26,319 bases of DNA, from assembly GCA_038889235.1 (NCBI GenBank), contig JAWAHN010000002.1:475386-501704 (forward strand), given 5' to 3'. Of this stretch, positions 356 through 18,175 are shown in pieces. Under the pieces are notes generated by a model. The model had not been told where the DNA came from, made no database searches, and saw only the letters and a list, made by a program, of their open reading frames with translations. Numbering within the stretch: the first letter of the stretch is position 1; every line of letters starts with the position of its first letter. The stretch comes from Candidatus Jordarchaeales archaeon. Lineage in GTDB: Archaea; Asgardarchaeota; Jordiarchaeia; Jordiarchaeales; Freyrarchaeaceae. A program made the translations under genes and the position numbers.

Positions 356-560
356 TTGAGAGCCTTAGTCGCCTACTACTCTGAAACCGGGAACACCGAG
401 AAAGTTGCGAAAGCAATTGCTGGGGCCCTAGGGGCCGAGCTGAGGCGCGTCGAAGAAGTAAGGGACGTGTCAGGCTACGACGTCATCATAGTCGGAACCC
501 CCGTACACTACTTCGGCCCAGCGGAGCCCGTGAAACTGTTCCTTGAAAGGCTCCCACCCC
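356..560 (+). pseudogene. Flavodoxin, 5' half (interrupted by the element)
   Basis: TTG start after a GGGTGG RBS; FMN-binding loop YYSETGNTEKVA and IIVGTPV. The frame leaves flavodoxin at the repeat 552-560 and stops at 571 inside the element. Confidence 0.92.
552..560 (+). repeat. attL core TCCCACCCC
   Basis: Identical 9-mer at 19666-19674; flanking bases differ on both sides; it sits at the flavodoxin breakpoint next to the integrase 3' end. Confidence 0.9.
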
Positions 561-565
561 GCCCG

Positions 566-2019
566 TTATAGACAAACCCCCGGACACTCTTCCAGGCATT
601 GTTTATTTTCTTTTCCTGAAAATATTTTGTTTCCATTATAGTCGCAGATGTATTCGAAGCCAGCCTCTACAAGTTGACATATTTCTTCCTCTGAGTGGGC
701 TACCTTTGCTATATATTCTTCTTCCTTAAATTCGATGAGCTGTGTGTATATCAGCGTGTTTTTGATGTTCTTGTGTCCAAGCATGCACATTACGTGTAGG
801 ATGTCCCTTGTTTTATGGTATTCCATTGTTGCCCTCCAATGGCGGAACGTGTGGAAGGTTATTTGCAACAGCCTTGGATTTTCAAGCTTCTTGGCCAGCT
901 TGCGCCTTTGTCTTGCAAAGCTCTTCTGCATGGCGTCAACGCTTACACCAAAAACTTTAGCCGAAGTCTTTGGCAGGGCTTTGAGCATAGCGATGAGCTT
1001 ATCCGATATCTTCAACACTCGCGGGCAGCTGCCTTTTTCAGGGGAAACCCTTACCACCTTTGCTTCAAAGTCTAAATCAGTCCATCGTAAGCGACACGCC
1101 TCCTCACACCTCATCCCCGTCTCTTTGAGAAGTTGTAGAAAAGCCATCAGCCTTTTTGTGGAAGCACACCCCGCTATAAGTTGGTCGATCTCGGCTTCTG
1201 TGGGTATAAATGGAAGCTTCTGAACCCTGCTATATCTTGGCGAGTCCCATCTACCGCCTATAAAGTTTAAGAAACAGCTGTAGGCCTCAACATACAACTC
1301 CTTTCTTCCGGCACTACAGCTTAGTCGAGCAATAGCCTCTTTAATGGACTCTGGATTGTAGAGGTCGGCTCCAAACTTCACAAGCTTTTTCAGAATCTTC
1401 ACATGTCCCTGGATAGTTGAATCAGCATAGCCCTGCTTCTTCATCCACCATGCGAATTCAACGAGTTTCCCTCTGATATTTGCTTGTCCTTGGTTTGTTT
1501 CTGTGGCTCCCGCAGCCCTCTTTTCAAGGCTCTGCGCATCCTCCATCTTCCTCCCTTTATGGGGGCCGAGTTTTTCGCCCCTTCTCTGAGGCGCAGTACT
1601 CGGCAATCCCTGATACGGTCGCGAAAGCTATTTACGGTTTTCGCTAATACAGTCCCATTATGTATTCCCGCATCTTCACACCATTTAAAAGAAGCCTCAT
1701 CCAAAGATTTCTTAAAGGGGAGATTGCCAGCAGCGATGCCAGCATGCGGAAGCTCCTTTACCGTTTCAAAACCTTCACGGAATTGTCCGCCGACGTCGAC
1801 CTCTACATTAGGCTTAGAGAAGCGATATCCGCAAAGCTTGCATAGCCAACGCTGAATAGCGCTGCCATCAGCCAAATAGCGAAGGCCATTCTTCCAAACG
1901 CTTTCCGAGCCGCATTCTGGACATTTAGGGGGCTGGCTGCTGGGCTGCGGGAGCCCGCTGGGCAAAGCCTCAGAAGGTTTAGCTCCGCAGTCAGCCTCTC
2001 CCTTAACCGTAGCGTTCAC
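566..2019 (-). pseudogene. Tyrosine recombinase/integrase with N-terminal Zn ribbon, split by frameshifts
   Basis: ORF 1441-2019 carries CPECG...WLCKLCGYRFS. ORF 566-1606 carries the catalytic set TGMRCEE, PEKG, FHTFRH, LGH, IYTQ. Indels at about 1555-1600 separate the two. An alternative-frame FRKRK-stop ending (TAA 605-603) suggests another indel near 620. Confidence 0.9.
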
Positions 2020-2174
2020 CTCTGGCTGGCGATCTGCCAGCTAAAGCCTCAGACCAAAAGCAAGCTCAGCAGATAATTGCCGTTTCCACCTTTCGCCGTC
2101 AAACATGTCTCGTTTTGAATACTATTGCTAAGCCAGCCTCGCATAGGTTTCTAAGATTGTAAGTTGCAAGTAGG

Positions 2175-3143
2175 CTAAAGGTTTGGAATCCATTCCTCGC
2201 CCATGCGCTTTATCGCTTTAAGGTTTTCAAGGTAGTTTAGGCACCTGTAAATCGTGGCTGGGCTGTAGAGGCTTGAGAGGGCGTTTAGTATTTGGTTTGA
2301 TGTTGCTGGTAGGGTTAGCATTATGCGGAAGCTCGGCTCGTCTCCGCTGTATGGGCTCAGCCACAAAACGCTTAGGGCTCTAAGCAGTTTAACGTCTTCC
2401 TCATTTACTTTCGTCCTGTTTTCGCGTAGGGCTGAAGCCTTAGCCATCGCTATGACATGTCGGTGCGATCTGAAACGCGTTTCATCGCGGTTTACAGCCG
2501 CTATAACCCTTCCAAGACGCATCAGGGCTTCTTTATGCCTTTCAGGAACGTTTACGCTTAGGGGCTTTTCTGGAAGGTTCAGCTTTACAGGTTTGAACGT
2601 GGGTTTAGCCCTGTATAAGGCTTGTTCTCCCCGGATTATGTCTTCGGGCGCGATGTGATAGCTTATTGGAACGGCTCGGCTTAGGAAGCCTAAGCGTATC
2701 CATTGTTTTCGGCGGAGTTTCCATTCGTCCGTTGTTAAAGCTGCTATGACCCCGGCTTTAACGGGCTTTGGGCTGTGGAATCGTATATAGAAGGTGTCTA
2801 TGTTTTGGACTCCTTCCTCCATCAAAGCGTTAAGCGTTAACAGTATCTGGTGCCACACAGGGTTTCCTCTTGCTGTAAGCCGTACCAGATCAGCAACCAT
2901 GACGTGGCGTATAAGCCCAGCTTGGATTTGTCCAAGCAATCCCGTAATCCCATAGCTTGTGAAGTCGTTGTAAAGCGTTACGCCCCTGTTTTCCGCGTAA
3001 GCCTTAAGAAGCTCCGTTTTCCCGCTGCCGACAGGCGCAATAATAAGCATGCTTAAGGGGTCATATGGCTCGATGTAGCCGCTGTAAAGGGCAAGTTCAA
3101 CGCTTATGGCTGTGGAAAGAAGTCCGGGCGGAAGCTCTCTCAG
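2175..3143 (-). CDS. Minimal MCM-like AAA+ ATPase with C-terminal wHTH
   Basis: Walker A IIAPVGSGKT; NALMEEG...I resembles MCM HEAMEQQTI; LSRA arginine-finger-like; FRSHRHVIAMAKASALRENRTKVNEEDV resembles the MCM sensor-2 helix. First ATG is at 3050 but the frame is open to about 3155, so the start is uncertain. Confidence 0.7.
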   Translation of the reverse strand: MRELPPGLLSTAISVELALYSGYIEPYDPLSMLIIAPVGSGKTELLKAYAENRGVTLYNDFTSYGITGLLGQIQAGLIRHVMVADLVRLTARGNPVWHQILLTLNALMEEGVQNIDTFYIRFHSPKPVKAGVIAALTTDEWKLRRKQWIRLGFLSRAVPISYHIAPEDIIRGEQALYRAKPTFKPVKLNLPEKPLSVNVPERHKEALMRLGRVIAAVNRDETRFRSHRHVIAMAKASALRENRTKVNEEDVKLLRALSVLWLSPYSGDEPSFRIMLTLPATSNQILNALSSLYSPATIYRCLNYLENLKAIKRMGEEWIPNL

Positions 3144-3268
3144 GTAGCTGATGTCTTCTCAGAAGCGTATATATCACTAGAGATACATACGCGTTTGAGA
3201 TAAGAAAGCTTTTCTGAGAGAAACCTTTCAAGAAGGCTGAGCCTCGTTATGTAAGTCTCAACATACAT
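3140..3268 (-). CDS. 42-aa hypothetical protein
   Basis: ATG 3268 to TGA 3140 (MYVETYITRLSLLERFLSEKLSYLKRV...), filling the operon gap between neighbouring genes. Confidence 0.35.
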   Translation of the reverse strand: MYVETYITRLSLLERFLSEKLSYLKRVCISSDIYASEKTSAT

Positions 3269-3274
3269 TCTCCG

Positions 3275-3888
3275 TCACCCTTCGTAGAACCATTTCGCCG
3301 GCTTGGTTGGAAGTTTGAAGGCCTTACCTGCCTTTACCAGCAACTCAAAGGCTTTCTCAACCACCTCGCCTGGAAAGTCGACTCCGTTGGCTTTGGCATC
3401 CTCGACGGTGTAGGCTCTTCCGCGCTCCAAAACACTGGACATTTGCTCCATGCAAGCTTGAATCGAATCGGCTCTTTCCGCTTCTATTCTTTTAGCTTCT
3501 GTAACTGCGCCGAGCAGCTATTTGGGAATCCAGGTTTCGCGCTGCCTTCTTCCGATTTTAACTCGTTCCCAAAGAAATCTTTTCATTAACATATTATTGA
3601 ATAGCTCGTCTACGGTTCTGCCTTTCAAACCTAACTGCTTAAGTCTTACAACATAGTCGCCCAGTTGGGTGCCCTTTCCAGCTGTCTTAGGATCTTTAGT
3701 ATATGCGCTGTCGGCAGTTATCCACACGTTGAAGTCTTTGTATTCCCCTCTGTCTGGCCTAAGTATTATGTGCCAGCGTGAATAGCGGGGTTTGAAGCGC
3801 GTCCTCTCCTAGCCCTCCTACAAAGGTCGCAGCTACAATCTTTAGTGACACTAACAACAGTAGCCGTTATATCTCTCAGACCCTCCAC
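3275..3888 (-). pseudogene. ~200-aa protein with a CxCxxC motif, beta-rich (OB-like) N-terminus and wHTH-like C-terminus; one frameshift and one in-frame TAG
   Basis: GTG 3888 gives MEGLRDITATVVSVTKDCSCDLCRRA; a missing G near 3808 leads into RFKPRYSRWHIILRP...WIPK, then TAG 3520-3518, then in frame LLGAVTEAKR...EKAFELLVKAGKAFKLPTKPAKWFYEG to TGA 3275. Confidence 0.6.
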
Positions 3889-4028
3889 CCCCTAATCTCC
3901 GTGATGGCGACTTCATTTTGGGGGCTTGACTCTGTGACTTCTGTTTTGTGGGTTGTGAGGTGTGCAGCTAAGTCGTCAATTGTGGAAAACTGACAGTTGC
4001 ATAGTGGACACTTCAGCTCACTGCTCAT
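3876..4028 (-). CDS. 50-aa C2H2 zinc-finger protein
   Basis: MSSELKCPLCNCQFSTIDDLAAHLTTH... matches C-x2-C-x12-H-x3-H exactly. It overlaps both neighbours and is below the ORF-track size cutoff. Confidence 0.8.
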   Translation of the reverse strand: MSSELKCPLCNCQFSTIDDLAAHLTTHKTEVTESSPQNEVAITEIRGWRV

Positions 4029-4214
4029 TCTCCGCAACCTCCCGGGCTAAAACGGTTTTTACCTCGGAGCTCACAACGTTCAGGCGTTCAAGCTTTTCAA
4101 TGATCGCTTGACGTGCGAATTCGCTGACCGACACCCCATCGCTAGGGACACGGTCTTTACGATATCCGCGATTCTCTCTGACACTTTTACGCTTATCCAA
4201 CGGTTTCTGTACAC
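4018..4214 (-). CDS. Ribbon-helix-helix (CopG-like) regulator, one apparent frameshift
   Basis: GGAGGT RBS then GTG 4214: MYRNRWISVKVSERIADIVKTVSLAMG. One extra G in the run at 4134-4137 would join it to VSVSEFARQAIIEKLERL. Confidence 0.78.
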
Positions 4215-4253
4215 CCCCCTTACCTCCGCAAATAATGCTCATAGCTTGAAGCT

Positions 4254-4261
4254 TTTATAAA
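4254..4261. promoter_or_regulatory. Palindromic TATA box TTTATAAA between divergent regulators
   Basis: Self-complementary. It lies about 25 nt from the + strand start (4285) and about 25 nt from the RBS of the - strand operon (4228-4223). Confidence 0.55.
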
Positions 4262-4284
4262 CTGGAATTACACACTTTTCAAGT

Positions 4285-4608
4285 GTGAACTCCATGAGGC
4301 GAGATAAGCTGAAACTGCAACCTATTGACCTAAAGGTCTTTGAGCTCATCCTTCAAGGGAAGAACATATATGGTATGTTTAAGTGCGGGCTTCCAAAAGG
4401 AACCATAAACAAGAGTGTTAAGAGGTTAAGAAAGCTTGGAATTTTTGAGGATAAAGAGTTAAGGCCTACAGAGGATGCCCTCAAAAAGCTCTTTGAAGCC
4501 GAGTTTGATAGACCAAGTTTAGATGTTGCTCGCGTCCTTGTAGATAATGGAGTTAACGCCAAATTGGCGAACTTTATTCAGTCTAGACTTCAAAAGTGTG
4601 CGATTTAG
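4285..4608 (+). CDS. Winged-helix DNA-binding protein
   Basis: LQPIDLKVFELILQGKNIYGMFKCGLPKGTINKSVKRLRKLGIFE fits the wHTH pattern; divergent from the RHH operon. Confidence 0.6.
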   Translation: MNSMRRDKLKLQPIDLKVFELILQGKNIYGMFKCGLPKGTINKSVKRLRKLGIFEDKELRPTEDALKKLFEAEFDRPSLDVARVLVDNGVNAKLANFIQSRLQKCAI

Positions 4609-4967
4609 GTTTAATAACGGATGAGAATTTTCTTCTTTTGCTCATCTTATATTGGGCTTTAATAGGTTACTTTAAGTATAAACTGCCAGTCAAAGAGTTA
4701 CATAGAATTTTGAGGCTCATCGAACCTAAGCTGAACAAAGATCTAATGAATGCCGTCGAGGGCCTGGTAAACCGTTCAAGATTTAATTTGAAGCACCCGT
4801 TCATGTTCGCGCGCATGTATATAGAACACCCGAAGCCTCTCCTAAGCTCTCGTGAAGAGGAAGAGCTCCACGAGGAAGAGGGGGCCATAGCTAGGCTTAT
4901 AGATGTCGCAAATAAATTTGGCGAGAACATCAAATTAGGAAGGATCGATGAGCCTTACCCCTTTTAA
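4596..4967 (+). CDS. Hypothetical protein with an N-terminal hydrophobic helix
   Basis: 123-aa ORF overlapping the upstream gene; FLLLLILYWALIGYF segment and an acidic EEEELHEEE patch. Confidence 0.5.
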   Translation: MCDLGLITDENFLLLLILYWALIGYFKYKLPVKELHRILRLIEPKLNKDLMNAVEGLVNRSRFNLKHPFMFARMYIEHPKPLLSSREEEELHEEEGAIARLIDVANKFGENIKLGRIDEPYPF

Positions 4968-5006
4968 TTAGTCTAACTCAGCTCCCAACGAAGTTAAAAA
5001 GTCACA

Positions 5007-5138
5007 TTAGATTGCGCTTTCCGCCATTTTTTCATTGATTGATGCTGATAAGGATTTTTTATACGGTTTGAGTCTTCCCGTCATATCTACAGCGCTTAAC
5101 CTCTTTTCAAATTCCTCTTTCATATCTTTTATCGTCAT
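5007..5138 (-). CDS. 43-aa hypothetical peptide downstream of the proteasome-beta-like gene
   Basis: GAGGT RBS; ATG 5138 gives MTIKDMKEEFEKRLSAVDMTGRLKPYKKSLSASINEKMAESAI, TAA 5009-5007. Confidence 0.35.
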   Translation of the reverse strand: MTIKDMKEEFEKRLSAVDMTGRLKPYKKSLSASINEKMAESAI

Positions 5139-5149
5139 AACGTATAACC

Positions 5150-5866
5150 TCACATTTTCAGAAGCTCCTTCAGTTTTTCCATAACATGCTGTAGCGAATC
5201 TTTTGCCTCTTTCTCAGGCAATTCAACCGCTGATGAGGAAACATCCTCTATGTCTTTCGGACTCACGGATACAAGGTTGATTTTTCCTCCAACAAAAGGA
5301 TCAATCGTTCCAACAAGTCGTATAACATAACATACAGGTTTTATTACACGCTCAATCCTTCTTTCAGATGGAAGAAGATACCTCAAGAAAAGCTCGGCAT
5401 AGGCCGCGCCCGAGCCCATCGCGCTGAAATCATCAACAGGTTCCGCGAGGGCTGTGCCATAAAGAGTAAAGGTGTCAACCTTTTCATTGCTTTCGTAACC
5501 CCCTATTATCATATCGTAAGTGTACTCAGCAATCTTCCTTTCTTCCACATACTCGCTGTGAAGCGTGCTGGCCAGTGGTTCAGCAACCTTACTTAGAGCC
5601 TCAGAAAGGGAGAGCTCATTTCTGTTTAGATCCTTATTTGCAATTTCAACCATGTTTGTATTTGTAAACATGCGAATAAACTTGTCTATGAAGGCTATTG
5701 TTCTAGCGCCAACCAGTGCGATCTTCTTCCTCACCAAACCCTCCTTCTCTATAACATGAATCTTATTTGTATCCCTTGAAATAGGCACGCCTCTACCGTA
5801 AACGGTTCTACTATCTGACGCAATTAAAATTCCATCATCACATTTTACTGCAATGCATAAAGTCAT
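5150..5866 (-). CDS. Proteasome-beta-like Ntn hydrolase without propeptide (copy A, intact)
   Basis: MTLCIAVKCDDGILIASDSRT gives Thr1 and Asp17 after Met removal; DTNKI supplies the Lys33 equivalent; AMGSGAAYAE and IDPFVGG motifs are present. Confidence 0.85.
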   Translation of the reverse strand: MTLCIAVKCDDGILIASDSRTVYGRGVPISRDTNKIHVIEKEGLVRKKIALVGARTIAFIDKFIRMFTNTNMVEIANKDLNRNELSLSEALSKVAEPLASTLHSEYVEERKIAEYTYDMIIGGYESNEKVDTFTLYGTALAEPVDDFSAMGSGAAYAELFLRYLLPSERRIERVIKPVCYVIRLVGTIDPFVGGKINLVSVSPKDIEDVSSSAVELPEKEAKDSLQHVMEKLKELLKM

Positions 5867-5923
5867 TTGCCTTACACCATTTTGATTATTTATACGCTAA
5901 AAGAATTTAAATTTAACATCTAC

Positions 5924-6686
5924 TTATCTCCTCTCAAAGAATGGACATTGGAAGCATAAACTTGCATCCGGCTTTAGGCTGTAGACTTCAACTTCCTCAG
6001 CAGTGAACCATGAGGTTGCCTTTTCAACAGTTCTAAGCTCAAAGAGCTCTTTGGCTTCTTCGCCGTATATGCGTTCAGCCTCCTCCTTGCTAAGCTCCCA
6101 AGCATCGCAGTATTCATCCTCGGCTAGGTGCCTGCAACTCTTAAGCTTCCATGTCCCTATAAGCCTCTCAGCCAAGCCTGGACCAGCCGTGCGCGTTGTA
6201 GCGGCAGTTGAAGCCGTAAACCCTAGTCCGCGCTCTAAGGCAAGCGAAGCCACGTCCACAAGTAGGCTCCCCGCTCCTTGGCAATGCGTTCAAGCCTTTC
6301 CTTAACTTCTTTACGAACCTTCAAGTAGAGCGTCTCCGCCGCTTCCAACACGCTTGAACCCTCCTCCAGTGGGCGTTCAGAATGGCCTGCGCTATTATTT
6401 CATCAGGCATAAGCATGTATTTTCTGAGCAGTTTGGCAAGCAGCTTAGCTTGGTCCGATATGGGTATAAGCTCCTCATTCCCATCACAGTATAGCCTATG
6501 GAAAACGTCTAACTCGGCTTGGAGCTCCTTTATGAATGCTTCATCGGCGAATGCTTGAAACCTGCCAAGATAATTGTAGACCGTGCTTCTACGGATGCCG
6601 AGCTCCTCAACTATGCATTTGACCGGCATCTTCCTTGCCCTAAGCCTAACGATCTCAGCAGCCTTATCCGATGGTATGCGCCTCAA
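5924..6686 (-). pseudogene. HTH + RHH + Cys/His Zn-binding domain protein, two apparent frameshifts
   Basis: ORF 6321-6686 has an N-terminal HTH (VKCIVEELGIRRSTVYNYL). An intermediate frame reads TLYLKVRKEVKERLERIAKERG and joins LVDVASLALERGL of ORF 5924-6259. Single-base additions in a C run (~6372) and a G run (~6270) restore one ORF. Confidence 0.6.
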
Positions 6687-6864
6687 AGCTGAACGCCAAA
6701 AATATTAAGGGAACTCCCCCTTAAATCGGTTTCATAGGCTCAGAAGTGCAGAAGTAAAAGCGTTGCTCAAGCCTTATCGTGATTCAGAGTCCAAACAATT
6801 CCAAATTGGTTAGAGCTCTAACCCGGTTAGAACATGTCTTCTGCACGGAGCAATAAAAACGCTT

Positions 6865-7425
6865 ATGAAACAATGGAAGCATCTTGAAAGCAGTGGAAAC
6901 ATGACGGTAACAGAGGAAGCGGCCCTCCTGCCCTTCGAGGAGAAGGCCAGGCTCATTATTGAGTTGAGGAAGCAAGGTAGGACTTACCGAGAAATAGCTA
7001 AGGCTTTGAAAGTTTCGCCTAGGGACATAAAGAGGGCTTTAAAGCTCGAGGCTCATAAGGATGAGATCCAGACGCTTAAGTCTAGGGTTGAAAGCGTCGA
7101 GAAGAGGCTTAACGGCATAGAGGAAACCTTAATTTGGCTTGAAAGCGGCCTCAACAGGAGGTTTAGGAAGGACGAGGAGATGGTCCAGTGCGTGCACATG
7201 GATAAGGAGGGATATTGCAGAGGCTGGTTTTGGAAATCGCCCGTCAAAGGCTGGACAATGAAGAGCGAAGGCGGAAAATACTATCTAAACGTGGATAAAC
7301 ACCGCTGGATATGCACTGCATGCCCAAGCTTCACGCCCAGAAGTTTTGAGGATAAGCTGGAGGGCCTTATTAAAGCCCTCAAAGAGGTCAGGACATTGCT
7401 TGAAATGGCTGCCTTCAAAACCTAA
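6865..7425 (+). CDS. HTH + coiled coil + Cys/His Zn-binding domain protein (likely start ATG 6901)
   Basis: QGRTYREIAKALKVSPRDIKRAL HTH; heptad region; CVHMDKEGYC...W...CTACPSF. Confidence 0.7.
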   Translation: MKQWKHLESSGNMTVTEEAALLPFEEKARLIIELRKQGRTYREIAKALKVSPRDIKRALKLEAHKDEIQTLKSRVESVEKRLNGIEETLIWLESGLNRRFRKDEEMVQCVHMDKEGYCRGWFWKSPVKGWTMKSEGGKYYLNVDKHRWICTACPSFTPRSFEDKLEGLIKALKEVRTLLEMAAFKT

Positions 7426-7483
7426 GCCCTTAACTCCAAACTATTTTGGTGGCTTACGAGGGCGAACCACTCCAGCATTTCCT

Positions 7484-7506
7484 ATTAGCATATCATTAGC
7501 ATATCA
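7484..7506. repeat. Tandem 11-bp repeat ATTAGCATATC x2
   Basis: Read directly at 7484-7494 and 7495-7505, in an intergenic region between convergent genes. Confidence 0.7.
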
Positions 7507-7623
7507 ATAAGCTCCCTTCATAAAAACGCTAAATTGTCTAAGATAAACAATCCAGTATCGCCTCCGCCACGCTTGCAGTGATATGAAGCTGCTCAGAATT
7601 GGCGCAGCTAAGCCAAGCGTAGT

Positions 7624-7812
7624 TCAAAGGAGCAATAATACACCTGTTATGATGAATAATGTGCCGACGGCAATCAGCGCTATTGGAAGCCAAATAGACG
7701 CTAGCAACAGGGAGACCAAGCATGCTCCAATTAATAATAGGGCTGCTGGAACGAGGAAAATTAGTAGTAAAGTTGCTATAATCCAAAACATTACCTTAAC
7801 TAGGTTAATCAT
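7624..7812 (-). CDS. 62-aa two-helix membrane protein
   Basis: ATG 7812 gives MINLVKVMFWIIATLLLIFLVPAALLLIG...; almost wholly hydrophobic; purine-rich RBS region upstream. Confidence 0.55.
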   Translation of the reverse strand: MINLVKVMFWIIATLLLIFLVPAALLLIGACLVSLLLASIWLPIALIAVGTLFIITGVLLLL

Positions 7813-7890
7813 TTCTTTCCCCCTCTTTCTCAACCTCCATTTTAGCCATCCCTATGCTTTAATTTTCATCTCTTAGGAAACGCTTGGCAA

Positions 7891-8703
7891 TTACTCTTTT
7901 CGCTTTTCTCTTTCCAATTCCTCTATCTTTTGCAGGACTTTTTGTTCTCCAGCCATGTCGAGCACCCTCCACATGCGCCTTATGAGTTCCTTCCTTTGTT
8001 TTGCCTTCCCTTTGTATTCCTTTATGGCCTCCTCAGTTAAGGGGCCTAGCAACACACCTTCCTCCCTGCCCTCATGTAGTAGCTTTCACCAACAAACGGT
8101 CCCACAACTGGGTCAATTTCGCTAACAACATCTATTATGAACGTTGATAGTGCCCCTATATCCAGCAGGTAGCTCTCCTCGGGCTCGTAGCCCAAAAGCC
8201 TTAGAAGCAAATTTCCACCAGTGAAAAAGCCCGTGCCTATGACGGCGAAGCCCGGGTTGTCGTGCACCGGCTGAGCCAAACCCCTATCATCGAACAGGTA
8301 CATGGATGCTTTTCCACTTTGGTCCACGCTTGCCAAAACCATGCTGAAGCTCAAGTCCAGCCCCTGATCACGTAGTTCCCTAAACCTGCTAATGAAAGCC
8401 AACTCGACCTGCTTGACGGCCCCCCTCAAACTGTTCAAAACTCGGAGTCTTCTTGCCCCATTCCCTGACAGCCATATCCCTAAGAATCCTCTCACAAATC
8501 CTATAGCTCTGCTTAATGAGTGAGGCGTCGCCAGCGCCTCCAGCAACCGCAAGCGGCACAGCCTCTCCATCCGCCATCAGGAGTATCGGGTACACCTTCC
8601 TAGTTTCATAGCTGACGGGGCCGACGGTCACCTTGGAATCTGAAGAAATAACCACGCCTTCTTTGCCCTCAATGACCCATTTCAAGGCAATAAGTAAAGT
8701 CAC
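7891..8703 (-). pseudogene. Proteasome-beta-like Ntn hydrolase (copy B, ~270 aa), two apparent frameshifts
   Basis: GGAGGT RBS; MTLLIALKWVIEGKEGVVISSDSK...RKVY (Thr1, Asp, Lys); AVIGTG; IDPVVGP. An indel in the C6 run 8420-8425 joins ORF 8389-8703 to 8046-8570. A second indel near 8065 continues EEGVLLGPLTEEAIKEY...LEREKRKE to TAA 7893-7891. Confidence 0.8.
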
Positions 8704-8706
8704 GAA

Positions 8707-8826
8707 TTATACCTCCTTGGAACATGAGCATAATCCTCTCAGGTTAAAACCGAAGTGATTAAGCTTGGTCTGCTGACTGTCACAGATGAGAAAGGTGCCA
8801 GCACGCCTAAGGCCGATAACAGTCAT
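8707..8826 (-). CDS. 39-aa ORF, possibly another degenerate proteasome-beta N-terminus
   Basis: MTVIGLRRAGTFLICDSQQTKLNHF...; MT-x-I-G-L-R...DSQ-x-T resembles strands S1-S2 of beta subunits. Confidence 0.25.
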   Translation of the reverse strand: MTVIGLRRAGTFLICDSQQTKLNHFGFNLRGLCSCSKEV

Positions 8827-8862
8827 GTAAACGATCCCCCTACCACTATCCTAAAAAGTGCG

Positions 8863-10683
8863 TTACGCGAATCTTTCCAGCTCCCCTTTTTGGTGCAAGT
8901 AAATAATATAAAATTCGACGTCTATTCCCCTTTCTTTGAAATATTTTTTAACCCATCTTATGTCGTCTCGAAAGAGGTATGCGTAAATGGCAGGAAACAC
9001 TACGCGGATCTTGCTTGGACTACCCTTATACTTTGATAATTTCCACGTAAGCCTCACTCGCGGGTTCCAAGGCTCCATGATTAACGCCCTTTCTTCCTCT
9101 GATGGATATCCAGTCTCTACCTCCCAATATTCACCATCTGCCACCATGTCAGGAATAACGTGTCCGATGAATTGGTTTGCTTCATTAATCAAGGGTTCTA
9201 GTGGCTCTGTCTTTACGCTTGCGTAACCACTCCTCTTAAGGTACCAATAAACAATCCTCTTCATCAAATAGTGAAAGGGAGACTCTCTTTCAGGGAAGAA
9301 ATCTACCTCTCTAGTTGGTAATTCATTGTCAAGCCTTTTCATTTCCTCCTCATAAAGCCGGACGGCAAACCCCCATAGATCGTCTATGCTTTCTTCGTAG
9401 ACTGCGGGTGGCAAATCGATACCCAAGAGTTTTTCGATCAGCCTTAGGAGCCTCTCATTATATTCAGGCAACGCGACAACGGTCACATCTATATCAAGTA
9501 CTTTTTTATCCAAATCCTCTAGTGGCCTCACATCGGACGTGTACAGTATAACGCATTTAGGTCCCTTTTTTGAGATCTCCTTAAGCCCCCTTATAATCTC
9601 CATGATATTCCCTTCGTTAACGGAAGGGATGCGCACTATCAAGCGCTCAGAGGTTATTAACGAATACGGTTTCTCTTCCTTGACCTCCTCGATCCCTGAT
9701 GGTGGTATGTGCTTAACACCTGTTTCCTTCACTCTCCCTTCAGCTATTTTGGACAATATGGGCTCTTTCTGCCAAGGTAGACCCATGAAAAATCCGTGCT
9801 CACCATGGTAGGTGTACTTCGTGGCCATTAAATGCTCAATCATTCTTAACCCATCCTCAGTTTTACCTACAGCTATCAAACACAGGGGGCGTTGCAAACT
9901 AAACTCTCCACCTTTACCCTTGAGGGTTGGTAGAAGTTCATCTAGCACATCTTCAGCCTCCAATTCTGGTTTAGCTTCTCTTGTCTCTATTTCTGCGCCT
10001 ATTTTACTCACCTCAACCTCAGGCTTTGCTACCGGCGGTTGCGGAACTTGAATTGTCATTTGGCGCCTTTCTATCTTCTCCTCGACGAGAGGAATAACGC
10101 GCATCTTTGGCACGTGTACGATGGAGCTCCGCTCTAGGAAGGCAGGAACAGTGCTGGGCGGTCGAAATACAGCTCGAGTAGGCCTGATGATAGGTGTTAA
10201 GGTTCCTAAATTCCTAATCGGCTCAGGGTGAATGATGGGCCTAACGGAGATATCTGAGGGGCGCTTCAGCCTCAGCCTTAAAGGGGATGTAGTAAGCCCC
10301 CGCATTGTTACGGGCATAAGGGTTGGGACCCTGATATCCATCAGGGTCGTAGCCCTGGGCGCCATGGATATGATCGGTGTAATAATGGCTGTGGGCTGAA
10401 CCTCGACAGAAAGGAGTATGGGCTTAATGAAGCTACGGGGACTAGCCCTAAGGTGTGGTGGCCGAGGTTGCGAAACCCCAAGTTGCTTGACGCTTTTGAT
10501 GGGGATGTTGAAGGTGATGCGCAGCTCGGTTGGTGGGACTTGCGGTTTAGGTAGCTGCTCTTTGACTTGTGGCGGCTCACGCTTGCCGACAGAAAGTGCT
10601 CTTCGAGTTTCAACTAAACGTCCAGAAGTTTCCTCTTTAACCTCTTCGCTCTTGGCTTGCTCCTCTGTTACTTGCTCTCCCAC
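8863..10683 (-). CDS. 606-aa protein: Ile/Pro-rich N-terminus, alpha/beta middle domain, CoiA-like PD-(D/E)XK nuclease (module 1)
   Basis: ERESPFHYLMK (ES-x2-H-x3-K, as in CoiA-type nucleases) followed by IPDMVADGEYWEVETG. GGAGGAG RBS; overlaps the upstream gene. Confidence 0.75.
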   Translation of the reverse strand: MGEQVTEEQAKSEEVKEETSGRLVETRRALSVGKREPPQVKEQLPKPQVPPTELRITFNIPIKSVKQLGVSQPRPPHLRASPRSFIKPILLSVEVQPTAIITPIISMAPRATTLMDIRVPTLMPVTMRGLTTSPLRLRLKRPSDISVRPIIHPEPIRNLGTLTPIIRPTRAVFRPPSTVPAFLERSSIVHVPKMRVIPLVEEKIERRQMTIQVPQPPVAKPEVEVSKIGAEIETREAKPELEAEDVLDELLPTLKGKGGEFSLQRPLCLIAVGKTEDGLRMIEHLMATKYTYHGEHGFFMGLPWQKEPILSKIAEGRVKETGVKHIPPSGIEEVKEEKPYSLITSERLIVRIPSVNEGNIMEIIRGLKEISKKGPKCVILYTSDVRPLEDLDKKVLDIDVTVVALPEYNERLLRLIEKLLGIDLPPAVYEESIDDLWGFAVRLYEEEMKRLDNELPTREVDFFPERESPFHYLMKRIVYWYLKRSGYASVKTEPLEPLINEANQFIGHVIPDMVADGEYWEVETGYPSEEERALIMEPWNPRVRLTWKLSKYKGSPSKIRVVFPAIYAYLFRDDIRWVKKYFKERGIDVEFYIIYLHQKGELERFA

Positions 10684-11510
10684 GCAAACGTCTCCTCCAA
10701 TGCTTTTATCAGGGCCTCTTTATGCCTAACCACGTACTCATACCGCTCGCCGCTTTTATAACCTCTCACGTAACGGTACGTTTCACAAAGTATTGGATCG
10801 AGGTGATACTTGCTATGTTCAAGATATATATCGCCTTCTGGATGCCTTCTTGACCCCTTACTGTATAAAAGCTCTTCCTCACGCATAACGGTAAACCTCA
10901 AAATTTCTTCGAATTCAGCTGGATTAGCTCCTATTTCCGTTCTAACCTCATCTAGAAAGCGTTGCCAATTCTCACGCCTGTAATCTTCATCCCTAAATGA
11001 GTCATGAGCAAGTAACGCCTTTAAAAAACCAATTATTTTGCTTTGACCATACGTTTGAGAGAGCTTCTTCAGAACAAGCTTAGCCCACTCAAGATAAGGA
11101 TTGGGTATTAAGTCGATATGAACACCCGTAAGCTTAGCAAGGCTCGACCTTACCTCACTCATTTTATCTCTTACCTCGCGATATAAGACTCCTCCGTAAT
11201 CGATACACCTCATGTAGAGGTGCTCATTATCCAGCCAATCGAAAATCCTATGTATGTGCTTATAAAGTTCCGTCGCAAAACTGTTCTCAGTTCTCTCGAC
11301 TTTATCACCGAACTTCACCCCTAAACTCCTTAGGATGGCTTTGGCCTCATTAGAGACAGCTTCCTGGTAAGAGCGTTCAACCGTTGCCAGATCCTCAGGC
11401 AACAGCAAGATAAGCTGGGATAGGATGTTCCTTGATGGTGAGAGGTTTGCTAAGGCATTTATAAGGTTGAGCATGTGCTCCTTTACGTTTACACTTTCGC
11501 TCAAGCTCAC
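10668..11510 (-). CDS. ~280-aa hypothetical protein, paralog of 11507-12148
   Basis: GTG 11510 overlaps the upstream TGA (GTGA). NLINALANLSPSRN, LGVKFGDKV and IPNPYLEW match NLVNALVAIAPSRN, FGVSFTDKI and IPNLAEEW in the neighbour. Confidence 0.75.
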   Translation of the reverse strand: MSLSESVNVKEHMLNLINALANLSPSRNILSQLILLLPEDLATVERSYQEAVSNEAKAILRSLGVKFGDKVERTENSFATELYKHIHRIFDWLDNEHLYMRCIDYGGVLYREVRDKMSEVRSSLAKLTGVHIDLIPNPYLEWAKLVLKKLSQTYGQSKIIGFLKALLAHDSFRDEDYRRENWQRFLDEVRTEIGANPAEFEEILRFTVMREEELLYSKGSRRHPEGDIYLEHSKYHLDPILCETYRYVRGYKSGERYEYVVRHKEALIKALEETFAWESK

Positions 11511-12148
11511 ATCCCTTCCAAAACAGCTGGATATTTTCTCAAGGCTTCTACAGGCCTGTAGCTTCCATCGTAGTCCTTGGTCGCAAGCTTGTAGAGGTCG
11601 AGAAGGTTTAGGCATTCGATTAAGGTTCCTCTACTAACGCCTAGGGCTCTCTCTAATTCATCGGTCTTTGCCCGCCCCACCCTCACAATTTCCTTTAGCA
11701 CCTTAACCGCCGTCCCGCCATATGTCGGCTCCGAGGACAATCCCTTCAGCCTAACGTCCAGCCACTCCTCTGCGAGATTTGGTATCCCTTGCGGGTATTC
11801 ATCTTTAAGTAAGGCTCCGACCTTGGATCGGAACTCTGGGTCCTCGAAGAGCTGAAAGACTTTGTCTATGAAGTCTGTTAAGAACCATCCGTATTGCTTT
11901 GGATCCAGTGATATCTTGTCGGTGAAGGATACGCCGAAAGCCTTAGCGAAGGCCTCACGTGTGTACTCGTCTTTTACTACATCCGGATAGGCCTCCTCAA
12001 GTATCCTGTAGTCGACGCTCCCATTCATCTTGACGATGTAAAGGAACTGGGTTATGTAGTTCCTCGACGGCGCTATAGCTACGAGGGCATTAACAAGGTT
12101 AGATAGTTGTTTTGAGAAGTCTTCACTTACATCTCCTTCTCTGGCCAT
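11507..12148 (-). CDS. 213-aa protein with a C-terminal wHTH
   Basis: AVKVLKEIVRVGRAKTDELERALGVSRGTLIECLNLLDLYKLATK wHTH; GAGGTG RBS; translationally coupled. Confidence 0.75.
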   Translation of the reverse strand: MAREGDVSEDFSKQLSNLVNALVAIAPSRNYITQFLYIVKMNGSVDYRILEEAYPDVVKDEYTREAFAKAFGVSFTDKISLDPKQYGWFLTDFIDKVFQLFEDPEFRSKVGALLKDEYPQGIPNLAEEWLDVRLKGLSSEPTYGGTAVKVLKEIVRVGRAKTDELERALGVSRGTLIECLNLLDLYKLATKDYDGSYRPVEALRKYPAVLEGM

Positions 12149-12726
12149 AACACTTTCACCTCAACTCTTGGAATAACGTCCCTTAATTCGAGGAGCAGAT
12201 CATCGAAATAAGGTGGAAAGTTAAGATATCCATAACTTACGTACTGTATGAGATAGCAACCTTTTAGTTCATCTAGGGCCCTCTCAAACTCATAATCAGT
12301 AAGGGTTTTCTGAAACAATAGTTTGTAAAATTTCCGTAAGCTACTGGTATCAACGGTCTCCGGGCGCATAATAGATATGAGGTAGAGGATTTCTCTCGCG
12401 TTTAGGCTAAGGGCGGTTGCCCTTGCTTTTGCGGACTCCACCACTGAATCCAGGCATATTTGCTTGAAGGAGTCTTGGATGATGTCTCTTAGACACTCGC
12501 CGGTATCCTCAGATCTTCCATAGGGATCCACCTTATCAACACCAAGCGCCTTCAGGTCATCCAGAACCGAGCTCAAGGCCCCAGACCTCCCGTATCTCGC
12601 CCTCAATATCTTCGCAGCCGCATCTGAACCAACAGTGTATAGTAGGTACAGCGCATCGGCCCTTTCCAGGCTGTTCTCCTCCACATACTTTTTCATAAGA
12701 CCCTCAATATCGACAGCTTTAACCAT
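12127..12726 (-). CDS. 199-aa protein with a C-terminal wHTH-like domain (first gene of module 1)
   Basis: LSLNAREILYLI...SSLRKFYKLLF...FERALDELKGCYLIQY; AGGTG RBS and a TTTAAA box upstream. Confidence 0.72.
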   Translation of the reverse strand: MVKAVDIEGLMKKYVEENSLERADALYLLYTVGSDAAAKILRARYGRSGALSSVLDDLKALGVDKVDPYGRSEDTGECLRDIIQDSFKQICLDSVVESAKARATALSLNAREILYLISIMRPETVDTSSLRKFYKLLFQKTLTDYEFERALDELKGCYLIQYVSYGYLNFPPYFDDLLLELRDVIPRVEVKVLWPEKEM

Positions 12727-12795
12727 ACATAGGACACCTGCAACAAATTATAGATGAGAAAGTTTAAATTAATTACGCTGCTGATTTAAGGGCAC

Positions 12796-12982
12796 CCGCC
12801 GAGCCATATACGAGGAAACCATTAAACAACACGCTTTCAGACGAGCCCGTCACACCAAATTAGATTGCAAAAAGCTAGAAATAAACTACAAACCGCTAAG
12901 AACGCGCTGATGCGCTTAACAATCACGATGAAGGACATACGCTGCAAGAACTCTGGGAGGATTCTGGAAGGAAAGGCCATGA
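12796..12982 (+). pseudogene. Degenerate small wHTH regulator, paralog of 14133-14343
   Basis: Reads with indels as PSxYEETIxNTLSDEPVTPN*IAKxLEINYxTAKNALMRL...KNSGR...FWKER versus PSRYEETIYNMLSDEPVTPNEIAKRLGISFKTVKDVLMHL...KNSGRIHIFWREK. Start codon lost (CCG); TAG at 12861-12863. Confidence 0.8.
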
Positions 12983-13014
12983 CCATAGGAACGCGCGCAC
13001 TCCCATAGAGAAGG

Positions 13015-13191
13015 TTAGCGAACTAATAGGGCTATTCCGATGATTGTGGCGATGACGCCTAAGACTATGAGGGCTACTGGAATAGCTATAGGCGCCAGCG
13101 CACAGGCTGGCTTTTTACATGAGGGGCATATTCCGCCTTCTATATCTGCCTCGGTGAGCCCATGCCCACAATACGGGCACTCAGCAACAGT
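13015..13191 (-). pseudogene. Double zinc-ribbon + C-terminal TM helix fragment
   Basis: TVAECPYCGHGLTEADIEGGICPSCKKP...IAIPVALIVLGVIATIIGIALLVR to TAA 13017-13015; no clean start codon. Confidence 0.55.
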
Positions 13192-13367
13192 CTAATATGC
13201 CTGCGGTAGAATCTATAATGCCATGGATCTAAGGGGTCTATTCGCATCATATGTAAAATGCCACTTACAGAGAGATAAAATTGTCTGTAGCGTTCAAGCC
13301 TAATAATTATTAGAGGAACCATAATAAGCGAACTACTAACATTAAGAAGGATTTAGGTCTAGGCTCA

Positions 13368-13456
13368 ATTATCATAAAAGCCAGACCCTCGATGAAGTTC
13401 TTACCAAGCTCGGCGTTAATAGGGTTGATCTCATTAAGATAAATGTTGAAGGATCC
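13368..13456 (+). pseudogene. FkbM-family methyltransferase fragment
   Basis: TLDEVLTKLGVNRVDLIKINVEG matches the FkbM TLD...IDLIKIDVEG motif; no flanking coding context. Confidence 0.6.
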
Positions 13457-13473
13457 GCTTTAAGATCCTCAAC

Positions 13474-14149
13474 TTACTGTGGACTTAACCTCCTGATAAC
13501 CTCCTTCAGCTCGATCACTTCTATTGGACAATCCTTCCAGTCATGTTCCCAGCAGACTATGATATCGCATTTATTGGGATCATGGCCATGCAATTGAAAA
13601 TTGCTACTTTTATACTCAAATTCTATATAGACTCTTTCATATCCTTTGTCAATACGTCTTCTCGCTACCATATCTGGAAAGGTTGGAGGGCTGGATTCAT
13701 AAATGATGCCTAAATCATCCATAACTTTGGAGAAAAGGAGGATAGTTCCGGCCTCGTTTAGTGGGGGATAAACAAAACCTCGAAAGTTTATTGGTTCCCC
13801 CACTATATCCTTAGGAGTTTTCTCTGGAACACTCGGCTTTATCGCCTCAGGAGATTTCAAGACCTCTAGAAGTTTGCTGATCTTTTGAATCCCTTCCTTC
13901 CATCCTATTTCCTCAAATTTCTTAAGCCATTCACTTGCCTTATCATGAATAAGCTTCATTAATTTATCTAAAGAATTGCGACGTTCAGACTCCTCATATA
14001 TATGCGATCATTTCATCCTTACTATAATACCTTGGTATAGAAATGCCAATGGAGTTACCTAATTGAGTCAGTTCTTCCCTTGTCATAGAAAAGGCATATT
14101 TTTCGTAGTTAAACAAAGATAGGAAACTTTCCTTACTTATTTTGGGCAT
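13474..14149 (-). CDS. HeH/SAP-like N-terminus + PD-(D/E)XK nuclease (restriction-like), apparent 2-nt deletion in an AT repeat
   Basis: ATG 14149 gives MPKISK...MTREELTQLGNSIGISIPRYYSKDEMIAYI. Adding AT to the (AT)n run near 13997-14002 joins it to ORF 13474-13959 with FPDMVARR...VYIEFEYKSSNFQLHGHDPNKCDIIVCWEHDW. Confidence 0.7.
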
Positions 14150-14343
14150 CTAACTTTTCCCTCCAGAATATATGTATCCTTCCCGAGTTCTTGTAGCGAA
14201 CGCCCCTCTTAATAACGGCTAGATGCATCAACACATCCTTCACGGTCTTAAAGGATATTCCAAGCCTTTTGGCTATTTCATTTGGCGTGACGGGTTCAAT
14301 CTGAAAGCATGTTGTAGATGGTTTCCTCGTATCTGCTTGGCAA
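14133..14343 (-). CDS. Small wHTH regulator divergent from module 2 (one apparent +1 indel)
   Basis: TTG 14343 gives MPSRYEETIYNMLSD. Removing one T near 14299 gives EPVTPNEIAKRLGISFKTVKDVLMHL...; the paralog at 12796 reads GAC GAG CCC here, supporting the repair. Confidence 0.75.
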
Positions 14344-14416
14344 GCGCCCTTATCTCTCTTCAAGTTAAAGGTATAGTTAATTTTTATATTATACATTACT
14401 CGAACATAAAATTAAC

Positions 14417-14428
14417 TGTTTATAAACA
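14417..14428 (+). promoter_or_regulatory. TATA box within the 12-bp palindrome TGTTTATAAACA upstream of module 2
   Basis: About 17 nt before the ATG at 14445, with a GAGGTG RBS in between, in an AT-rich divergent spacer. Confidence 0.5.
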
Positions 14429-14444
14429 CATAAGGAGAGGTGTA

Positions 14445-15449
14445 ATGTCTGCCATATCACCTGAGGAGCTTATTAGTGATGTTAAGCCTTGGGATAGAGA
14501 TTCTTGGAGAAGGTTTATAGAGACACATGTTGTGCCTATTAGAATTCTAGCTGATAACGTTGCAAAACAGTTTGTTGGCGATGCTTCAGCGGGAGTTGCA
14601 AAGGCTCTGGCTGATAGTGCCTCACGTGTTGTAGAAGTGGCTAAGAGAGTTATTGGGGAGGTTAAAGTGGAGTTTGAGGCCCCAACAGACCCCATTGAGG
14701 GTTTAAGGCTTCTCGTTGAAAAATGTGGAAACACGTTCCTCGGCGTAGGCGATGCTGGTAAATACACCTTGTTTGCATGGACTCTTAGGAAGGTCACAAG
14801 GGAGTATTTGTTTGAAGCACTATACCCTTCATTGAAAGATAAAGAGAAACGGGATAAGAAATTTGAAATTCTAGGTATAAGAGAAGATCTACCATTGTTT
14901 GTACCTGCAGTTAAGTCTATATTAACTGAGAACCTAACAGTCCTAGGATACCCTGATTATCCATCAATTTGCCGCGTCGAAGAATGGGAGATATATGTGA
15001 CTTTAAGTATATTGCCCGCAAGGGAAGCAATCCTTGGAGGCTCTATCTGTAGGTTTGTTGATAGGATCGTAGCGGTGCTTGGTAGACCCGGCATACTTTC
15101 AGGCGTGGAGCTATCAGCAGACGTCGTTAAACTATACCTAGATAAGTGCCCTGCGAGGCCCACGGAGCTGTACGAATACTCTTGGATTAGGCATAACTGG
15201 AGAAGAAGCTATGCTGAATTAGATAAACTTTGTAGAGTTAGATGCGATCGTCCATGGAATATTCAGGGCTTCGCTATAAGGTGCGTTAATAATTTAAGAT
15301 CGCCAGATGAATGGAGTGGATTAAATCAAGAGACAAACCTGCTAAGCTTCTTTAGGTTAGTGATGCCAAGCCTAGTAACTGGTCGCACGGAGTTATTGTT
15401 TAGCAGCGACTGGAGGGTTGCCTTAACATTGGAAAGGGTGCTCTCTTAA
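14445..15449 (+). CDS. 334-aa hypothetical protein (first gene of module 2)
   Basis: GAGGTG RBS and ATG 14445; its TAA overlaps the next ATG (TAATG); no family recognised. Confidence 0.75.
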   Translation: MSAISPEELISDVKPWDRDSWRRFIETHVVPIRILADNVAKQFVGDASAGVAKALADSASRVVEVAKRVIGEVKVEFEAPTDPIEGLRLLVEKCGNTFLGVGDAGKYTLFAWTLRKVTREYLFEALYPSLKDKEKRDKKFEILGIREDLPLFVPAVKSILTENLTVLGYPDYPSICRVEEWEIYVTLSILPAREAILGGSICRFVDRIVAVLGRPGILSGVELSADVVKLYLDKCPARPTELYEYSWIRHNWRRSYAELDKLCRVRCDRPWNIQGFAIRCVNNLRSPDEWSGLNQETNLLSFFRLVMPSLVTGRTELLFSSDWRVALTLERVLS

Positions 15450-17245
15450 TGTTAGAGGGAGAGAGGCCTCTTAAAACCATGCCACGATACGTTGAGGATT
15501 ATATAGAGGAATTATTATATTTCCTCGCCATTGAGAAGAAGGCTGAAGTTGAAGTCATAGTAGAGGAGGAAAAAGAGGAGAGTCTCAAACTGAGAATTAT
15601 AACGATGACGCCATATGGAGGGAAGGTTGAAAGTGCCGACATGGCGCCTAGGATATCTCTTAGGAGCTTTCCTTTTATAGAACCAATAAAAGTGGAACAC
15701 CCGCTAAAACTAATCCAACCGATAATAATGTTTGAAAATGAGATTTTTACGGAAGTACGCTTTCCACCTCTTACCAGAATATCGTGTTTTTCTCAACAAC
15801 CTATCCAAGCTTTTCATCATAGAATTGGGAGAATACAGCCTGCATTATTACCCTACGTTTCACCTAATTTTTACTCCTGGCTTAAATATTCAATTAAACC
15901 TATGAGTCTCATTGAGCAGCCTTGCATAACAGCATTTACATTAAAGCATCTGCTAAGACTTATTGAGGTCCCGCTGAAATTACCAATTACATCTGAAGTT
16001 AAGGCATCAGACAAGCTTCCAGCATTGACAACCGAAAGGTTCTTGGTGCAGAGATCAATCAAAGCAACGCTTACAGAGGTCATTGAGGCATTACAAAGCA
16101 CAGCTCAGGCACAACAGCTTAAAGGCTTAGGTTTGCTTGCGCTATTATTGCCAGAAGAAAAAGAAAAAGCTTAGACGTTTCATAGGGGCCTCAGAGGAAT
16201 ATATAGGAGAACCTAAAAGTAAAATATCATTTATGGTATCCCATCTGGACTGCATGTAGGGAAGTTTATAGAGAAGCTAAAGGATCTTATCCTGAACCCA
16301 TTGTTTTGCTTGAGAAGGGAACTGAGGATTGGTTAAGGATTCATGGGGGCATCTCAGGCAAGGTTGTAGTTTTAGATGAGGAGAAAGTAGGAGAGGAAGA
16401 AATAAAGAAATGGTTTAGGAGGAGGTTGCAAGAGGCATTCTCGCAAGGGCTTGGGCTCCTCATACTCATTGCAAATGATGTTAATAAGGCTAAGGAATCC
16501 GTTGGAAACCTTTGTAAGCCTTATGCAGCAAAAATTATCGATTTACATGTCACTTCTGAACTCGGACACGTCCTAAACCGCTTAGCGAGGATGTTAAGCA
16601 TAGGCTTTGGTATTCCCCGCGAGGAAATATGTAAAACTGAGGAGCTGAAGGTTGAAGATAAGGTAATGACGATCATAGAAGGGCAACCATGTGAGCTCCC
16701 CCATATGGACATCATGGTTGCGAGAACCGACCGCGCATATCAAAGCTTTTTGGATGAACTTTTATCAAGCGATTATCTAGCACATGCCAGAAGAGATGTA
16801 GGTGAGCGTGAAAGCGAAGATCATGTGGCAATGAAGATCTTGGCAATTAAGGATTTACATGAGAGGTTCAACGTTAAGCTTGAGGACATAATTTGCACTT
16901 GTGAAGTTGGAGATAAGATAGTAGCGGACGTTTATGTGCGTGGTAAGGCATTGGCGATCGAATGTGAAATGATGCTCGGTATTGCGCCATCACCCCTTCT
17001 CAAAATATTTGAGTCTGTCAGAAAGTATATTGAACGACCTTTAAAGCCGGATATGCCTGTAAATGAAATTTGGATCATAGTCCGTAACTGGCCAGCTATA
17101 TTACAATTTGGATGATTTATTCTGGGCCGAAAACATTCTGAGAAAGGAACTAAAAGAACGTAATAGAAAAGTGAAATTTTTCATTCCAGATATTTGCAGA
17201 AAATCGCTTATGGCGATCGATGATATTGTCAGAGCATTTTATTGA
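15449..17245 (+). pseudogene. Paralog of the 606-aa CoiA-like nuclease protein, three apparent frameshifts (module 2)
   Basis: Ile/Pro-rich N-terminus (15449-16174); shifts near 16170, 16222 and 17110; ERESEDHVAMK and VADVYVRGKALAIECE. The tail DDLFWAENILRKELKE..VKFFI aligns with DDIRWVKKYFKE..VEFYI; TGA at 17243-17245. Confidence 0.75.
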
Positions 17246-17256
17246 AGTAACAATTT

Positions 17257-17388
17257 ATGACTTTATTCTTGCTCTAAAGGGGTTCTCGAAGGTAAAGAGG
17301 GCGTCATCATCTCTCCGATTCTAAGGCCACCGTATGTCCAGTGAGCTATGAGATTAGGAAGGCATATCCAATACTTTTGAAGGGTTAA
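17257..17388 (+). pseudogene. Truncated proteasome-beta-like gene (remnant, paralog of copy B)
   Basis: ATG 11 nt after the nuclease stop. With indels it reads MTLxLALKxVLEGKEGVIIxSDSKATVCPVSYEIRKAYPILL versus MTLLIALKWVIEGKEGVVISSDSKVTVGPVSYETRKVYPILL. Confidence 0.82.
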
Positions 17389-17594
17389 TGAGAAGTTAGG
17401 GCAACAATTTTAGGTTCCCTTCACTGATTCGTTCAGCGCCATAGGTACGTTGAGATGTGCACGCAGCAGAGTTAAAGCAGTCCATCGGCTGAGCACGCGC
17501 AACAACCAAGGATAGGTATGAAAAGGCGAAAAGGTTACTTAACTAAACCTGAATGTGGAATCTGAGAGGAGGTCTATGCTTTGTCTCGTTCTGC

Positions 17595-18042
17595 TTATAC
17601 AATCCCACTTGATTTCTTTAACACATCATTCCACGCTGTGACATGGACCTTACTCGCGTTCCAGCTCTTCAATTCCCTCAAAGCTCTACGTTCCTTGCGG
17701 TCCAAACGTTCGTAACCAGTATCGTTCTCCTGCCTGTTGAAGAATAACTCGCCAGCTGGTCTAACGGTTCCACTTCGACGAGAAGCCATTCCCCTTTTTC
17801 TCTCGGCTATTACATCTGGACTTCCGGAAGCTCTAATATCCTCTGGGGCTTCTTCCCTTGCAACAATCCTATAGCCCATCCTCCTCAGCTTTTCCTCTAC
17901 AGCAACCTTAGGACTTCGTGCACGTGACATAGGGCCTTCCTGCCTCCAAAGCCTTCACAATGCTCCTCGTCTCTTTAAACGCCTCTCTAGCCCTATCAAT
18001 CGACTTAAAAGTGTTCCAAACGCTCGGCACCCCCGCCATCAA
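17595..18042 (-). pseudogene. Small PD-(D/E)XK (Hjc/Mrr-like) nuclease, frameshifted
   Basis: GAGGTG RBS; MAGVPSVWNTF...HEVL/VAVEEKLRRMGYRIV...GSPDVIAER, then after a shift GEWLLVEVE; further stops downstream. Confidence 0.6.
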
Positions 18043-18158: not shown

Positions 18159-18175
18159 GCCATTTTGGGCTTAGT

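Follow-up and report, generated by a model that had tools for sequence, protein, structure and literature searches.

A proteasome-beta-like gene on an integrated archaeal element and its conserved partner micro-protein gene

The 2021 survey of Fuchs, Alva and Lupas named 22 new proteasome homologues and gave no genomic clue to their function (PMC8665760). Among the relatives of the proteasome, Anbu has been described as bacterial (PMC5666114) and, like most other homologues, needs no propeptide (PMC8665760, PMC5666114), and connectase, a beta homologue, acts as the ligase of a specific peptide (PMC7980362). In the proteasome itself, two catalytic triads have been described and Gly47 forms the strictly conserved oxyanion hole, while the propeptide of yeast beta5 works when expressed in trans (PMC4792962). 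Here, we analyze a gene with this fold (copy A) in 26,319 nucleotides of a “Ca. Jordarchaeales” contig, referred to as the window. Copy A appears to be the large half of a portable two-gene cassette, annotated as follows:

5007..5138, minus strand: conserved partner micro-protein of 43 aa; two predicted helices, no family match, single copy in the genome
5139..5152, minus strand: protease stop codon overlapping a GAGGT ribosome-binding-like motif (from sequence)
5150..5866, minus strand: proteasome-beta-like Ntn (threonine) hydrolase of 238 aa, copy A (from the open reading frame, Pfam, the AlphaFold2 model and alignment)
5867..5923, minus strand: AT-rich spacer (57 nt, 75% AT) with a TTTAAA TATA-like box at 5906-5911, 40-45 nt before the start codon (from sequence)
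5924..6259, minus strand: upstream ORF of 111 aa, a remnant of whose 3' end also precedes the cassette in other lineages

Fold and active site of copy A

The product of copy A matched PF00227 with 43.4 bits (E 4e-11; Pfam cut-off 22.4), and its AlphaFold2 model (pLDDT 92.6) aligned with an archaeal proteasome beta subunit over 181 residues (Z 23.6, rmsd 2.1), ahead of Anbu (Z 21.1), HslV (17.9), BPH (16.9) and connectase (10.6-10.8). The model contains helices at residues 57-69 and 87-109, an extra helix at 72-80 and a C-terminal helix at 218-237. As the preliminary description had it, the propeptide is absent: Thr2 directly follows Met1, and all 135 full-length relatives share it. The AT-rich region of its own that the gene was said to have upstream is also real, and we infer that the TTTAAA box is its promoter; a scan for sigma-70 promoters, with a model ill-suited to archaea, stayed at chance level. 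Farther upstream lies the 111-aa ORF; a remnant of its 3' end also precedes the cassette of three further lineages (L008 and L028, with a weak case in L001).

Numbering from Met1, the equivalents of the catalytic residues Thr1, Asp17, Lys33, Ser129 and Asp166 are Thr2, Asp18, Lys35, Ser152 and Asp189. Among the 135 relatives, Thr2, Lys35, Asp189, Gly151 and Gly153 were invariant, while Asp18 was kept in 134 and Ser152 in 132. The conserved residues of the family match the two triads of the proteasome (PMC4792962). Gly151-Ser152-Gly153 and Gly193-194 are likewise present in copy A and near-invariant in the relatives, in agreement with the retention of Thr1, Asp17, the lysine, GSG and D-x-x-x-GG noted earlier. 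A GRG-x-P loop (residues 24-28), invariant in the family, lies beside the active site.

In the catalytic sense, the gene is not fully intact, contrary to what had been claimed. Residue 55, which aligns with Gly47 of the M. jannaschii beta subunit (3h4p) and with the corresponding glycine of Anbu, is an arginine in copy A and a glycine in 133/135 relatives, including the 89%-identical sister P0002. Its codon is AGA, versus GGA or GGG in the three relatives checked (GGA in the sister). In addition, Ala139 occupies a position where 133/135 relatives keep a glycine. Because of the arginine at the Gly47 position, this allele is probably weakened or dead, and a Gly47-bearing relative would be preferable for bench work. 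The overall dN/dS against the sister is still 0.17, so any decay would be recent; the AGA codon might conceivably be a consensus error instead of a real change.

The partner gene and its mobile cassette

Copy A had been considered a stand-alone gene, but the conserved 43-aa partner starts 11 nt after its stop codon, and we infer that the two are translationally coupled. The partner was predicted, with modest confidence (pLDDT 66), to form helices at residues 3-16 and 20-42. With the equally placed ORFs of other loci, it shares 81% identity (L008) or 60-67% (L001 and L005). Differences from L001 by codon position were 14/7/24, and dN/dS was 0.22 and 0.35 where measurable; third-position changes thus dominate, and the gene is under purifying selection.

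The partner matched no family in Pfam, PADLOC or Atlas. By profile search, it was detected in 53 of the 56 non-redundant core loci, both archaeal and bacterial. These profiles had been built from the same loci, hence we ran leave-one-out controls after removing sequences >50% identical. These still put the ORF behind the protease at the top of the ranking in 12/12 archaeal loci, in 38/39 bacterial ones and in all five independent loci fetched later. Three loci (L037, L047 and L060) have an intact protease gene and no detectable partner. The position, reading frame and clade-specific motif of the partner are kept across genes ca. 45 to 55% identical and across many phyla. In the bacterial partners the motif is a different one: a hydrophobic helix, set within charged tails, ends in Y-[IV]-x-R-F, and some partners repeat it in tandem (L035 and L050). 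Their profile does not align with the archaeal one (hhalign probability 0.3). The bacterial motif might resemble actinobacterial PrcB propeptides. In a more distant clade (L019, L020, L022 and L023), small ORFs of different sequence directly follow the protease; the one in L020 encodes a DUF5678 protein, and a gene for an aspartyl protease comes next.

A complex prediction with two protease and two partner chains scored 0.00, which is no verdict and counts neither way. Protease and partner identities were correlated (rho 0.44), which reflects shared descent and is not evidence of binding. Among 290 fetched proteins there was no full-length natural fusion of the two; P0088 is half a protease run into the partner, possibly a frameshift artefact.

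The placement of copy A on a mobile element was confirmed, and the element also holds two further proteasome-like sequences:

552..19674: integrated element carrying the cassette, 19.1 kb, with 9-bp direct repeats at 552 and 19666
566..1606, minus strand: tyrosine integrase of the element (PF00589, 81.7 bits)
7900..8703 (3' end approximate), minus strand: copy B, of a different proteasome-like subfamily, with two frame shifts; outside the cassette
17276..17379, plus strand: copy C, what remains of a gene of the copy-B type, with stops and shifts; outside the cassette

The element splits a 147-aa flavodoxin-like gene, which is restored by joining the flanks and uninterrupted in three congeners. 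At its right junction there is a tRNA T-loop-like GGTTCAAATCCC, suggestive of integration at a secondary site. Copy A was found in 1 of 60 relatives, that one listed in the phylum of the host, and in none of four genomes of the same family, while canonical proteasome subunits matched in 10/10 relatives checked. The closest relatives of copy A bear the names of a Sulfolobales MAG and “Ca. Methanodesulfokora,” another locus (L009) belongs to a “Ca. Baldrarchaeota” genome, and DNA identity to L008 is confined to positions 4971-6038 of the window. Given these closest relatives and the limits of the identity to L008, the cassette moves on its own.

Among the 28 bacterial loci with at least 1 kb downstream, a DDE transposase started within 600 nt behind the protease in 14, 12 of them of the IS1 family. 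A small basic ORF with a PRDxNQL motif was seen beside IS1-linked cassettes (L044:4053-4286, L071:123-416 and L082:1787-2041). Besides transposases, no other neighbor recurred widely among 59 non-redundant loci. At individual loci, the cassette adjoins restriction-modification genes (L008 and L095), the protease adjoins a dGTPase (L060) or lies intact downstream of a Ubl-E2-JAB-E1 (Bil-like) operon (L037:1953-5671 and L047:1636-5768), and PADLOC candidate genes (PDC-M30A and HEC-01A-like) are found nearby (L103). The cassette itself had no PADLOC match, and the protease none among PLSDB plasmids or INPHARED phages; IMG/VR held one truncated copy (L085:5001-5491), its protease cut to 98 codons and its partner intact. 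Protease genes are also broken in L033 and L078. Broken proteases beside an intact partner were left uncounted, since the longer gene offers the bigger target and there are errors in contigs. Almost all family members come from uncultured genomes, with no RefSeq name among them.

The preliminary description counted at least three such sequences on the element. Copies B and C do exist, and B is as divergent from A as was stated (23% identity), but B has frame shifts, of C only a remnant with stops is left and A carries Gly47Arg, so the view that the element uses several beta-type enzymes was overstated. The broken type-B genes follow the large nuclease-like genes of two paralogous multi-gene modules (8863-12726, minus strand, and 14223-17115, plus strand), in which we found no Pfam, NCBIfam or PADLOC family of note. 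Because none of six module genes gave a tblastn match in any of the other cassette loci fetched and bacterial carriers have no detectable alpha subunits, the sharing of one element by copy A and the modules looks incidental.

Several other features were noted in the window. What is left of a PD-(D/E)XK-like nuclease gene, with a frameshift, lies at 17500-18050 (minus strand); at 13474-13959 there is another small nuclease-like ORF, which has a homologue close to a cassette fragment in L068. There are inverted repeat pairs at 12787-12962 / 14176-14352 (73% over 179 bp) and 18107-18158 / 18539-18590 (88% over 52 bp). Just outside the element, a Cmr-like (CRISPR type III-B) cluster, recognized from sequence motifs only, occupies 21030-26319 (minus strand) and extends to the contig end, overlapping contig C4 by 127 bp.

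Possible roles of the pair

We favor, tentatively and as quite possible, an explanation in which the protease is accompanied by a dedicated peptide, inhibitor or tag, and the two form a toxin-antitoxin-like or defensive module. Removal of Met1 would leave an enzyme ready without a propeptide, which probably pairs through its C-terminal helix in the manner of Anbu. The partner would use an amphipathic helix to bind this enzyme, to which it would be dedicated as an inhibitor or recognition tag. Once the short partner is lost, for instance because infection halts translation, the protease would be set free; at loci with an antitoxin fused to the partner, control of the neighboring toxin would fall to the protease. 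The cassette would thus work as a toxin-antitoxin or abortive-defense module. The near-universal partner, its first rank in the leave-one-out controls and its purifying selection are in line with this proposal, as are the confinement of the L008 identity to the cassette, transposases as the sole recurring neighbor, the defense-type neighbors at individual loci and the absence of the cassette from four genomes of the same family.

Two fusions point the same way. Of 17 archaeal-clade loci, 4 encode the partner as the N terminus of a longer protein. Two of these (L029 and L034) have an antitoxin-like tail followed by a PIN toxin gene, although the L029 tail gives a weak AF2212 match with a frameshifted PIN gene and the L034 tail is antitoxin-like by position and size only. 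In the other two (L033 and L103), the partner is fused to a larger domain without known family. That of L033 (L033:819-1514), an unclassified domain of 180 aa, also occurs in P0292-P0301, alone or with unrelated N termini (Alba, coiled coil or the partner peptide); with no family match and no tie to this protease, we discarded it as a part of the system. The fusions may thus be deletion accidents, which weighs against the inhibitor or tag explanation. So do the failure of archaeal and bacterial partners to match, the lack of a PADLOC match and the three loci with an intact protease and no detectable partner, next to a Bil-like operon or a dGTPase, where a strict toxin-antitoxin system predicts otherwise. 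It is doubtful, albeit conceivable, that the pair represents an undescribed toxin-antitoxin or antiviral class, in which a micro-protein would hold a proteasome-type threonine protease and double as a modular tag, whose grafting onto antitoxins or other domains would subject these to control by proteolysis, i.e., a minimal tag-and-protease system of archaea and bacteria.

Instead, the partner could be a subunit of the structure or an aid to assembly, in effect a propeptide in trans by which the oligomer is completed or activated; the enzyme would then be a stand-alone, ATP-independent protease acting on host or invader proteins. We consider this unlikely. Its size and one or two helices would fit such a role, the family lacks a propeptide, the yeast beta5 propeptide is functional in trans (PMC4792962) and the tandem helix motifs look as if made to bind neighboring subunits. 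However, Anbu and most homologues are propeptide independent (PMC8665760, PMC5666114), three intact protease genes do without a detectable partner, and the fusion to antitoxin tails is left unexplained. Rather improbable in our judgment is a sequence-specific peptidase or connectase-like ligase whose substrate is the partner, from which a cleaved-off fragment would pass to targets or serve as a released signal. Connectase offers a precedent (PMC7980362), the invariant GRG-x-P loop lies beside the active site and the partner can be found, tag-like, at the N terminus of other domains, but the model keeps helices H1/H2, absent in connectase, and is far closer to a beta subunit, and no invariant cleavage-site-like motif was found in 18 archaeal partners.

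There is little chance of neutral hitch-hiking, in which the pair would comprise a stress peptidase of general function and a small gene kept by linkage only. The otherwise random neighbors and the several broken copies would suit it, but not the conservation of the partner's position, frame and motif among such divergent genes, nor the selection acting on it. That copy A has the nuclease modules of its element as its targets in trans, or joins or modulates the host proteasome, as proposed earlier, is highly improbable: the broken beta-like genes of the two modules and the two alpha and two beta genes elsewhere in the host genome might speak for it, but no module gene was found in any related locus fetched, copy A is only ca. 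20% identical to the host beta and 23% to copy B, and, of the Chloroflexota genomes carrying the gene (MAGs, possibly incomplete), three have no other PF00227 gene and two more only an HslV-sized one.

Comparison with known proteasome-like families

Copy A shares with PsmB (TIGR03634, MEROPS T1) the fold and the positions of Thr1/Asp17/Lys33, Ser129 and Asp166. It differs in scoring 44.7 bits against the TIGR03634 cut-off of 224, in having an extra helix and no propeptide or alpha gene, in being mobile and in the Ser169 position, mostly Val in its family. In a quick maximum-likelihood tree, it fell in a clade of 13 rows (SH-aLRT 100) apart from the host PsmA and PsmB and not inside canonical PsmB, the grouping that would have contradicted the first account; together with the score and its presence in 1/60 relatives, this agrees with an accessory gene distinct from the housekeeping PsmB. 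ACC comprises archaea only (Fuchs 2021), whereas the 13-row clade is mostly archaeal with one member named from an Elusimicrobiota MAG, and its closest relatives by score are bacterial, at a join that the quick tree leaves unresolved.

The likeness to Anbu that had been suggested holds for the architecture and not for the SDSRT motif. Both lack a propeptide, and copy A aligns with 5loy through the C-terminal helix (to residue 238; 214 residues, Z 21.1, rmsd 4.2), but the sequence match is weak (E 7.8e-4). The motif is not diagnostic, since its Arg is found in only 13/135 family members and a true beta subunit (8oix_H) also has ASDSRT. The Anbu operon genes (transglutaminase, ATP-grasp and Alpha-E) did not recur among the 59 non-redundant loci or in Pfam-annotated loci. 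The best family E value was 2e-4, to HslV models; copy A has a C-terminal helix, unlike the compact HslV without H5, and no HslU-like neighbor recurred among the same 59 loci. Connectase (DUF2121) differs in lacking the H1/H2 helices (Z 10.6-10.8).

The best fit is with the group II homologues, and copy A is perhaps a WPH, with which it shares the beta fold, the catalytic residues, the absence of a propeptide, the C-terminal helix and an occurrence in bacteria and archaea (PMC8665760), although this range and the helix are not specific to WPH. The difference is the nearly universal coupled partner gene, as opposed to no informative genomic context in that survey (PMC8665760). A literature search, judged partly on the 20 top titles, found no published description of the pair.

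With type II toxin-antitoxin systems, the cassette shares two coupled genes, a large enzyme with a small, charged helical partner, mobility and defense-rich regions, and it differs in that the partner shows no DNA-binding domain. To our knowledge, no known toxin family is a proteasome-type protease. If the partner is an inhibitor or tag, the proteasome fold would have been reused in genetic conflict, and the cassette would offer a minimal model of the acquisition of dedicated regulators by such proteases. In any case, the near-universal peptide is a concrete candidate ligand within a directly testable two-gene unit. Fold and family were already known, and on the partner we found no paper.
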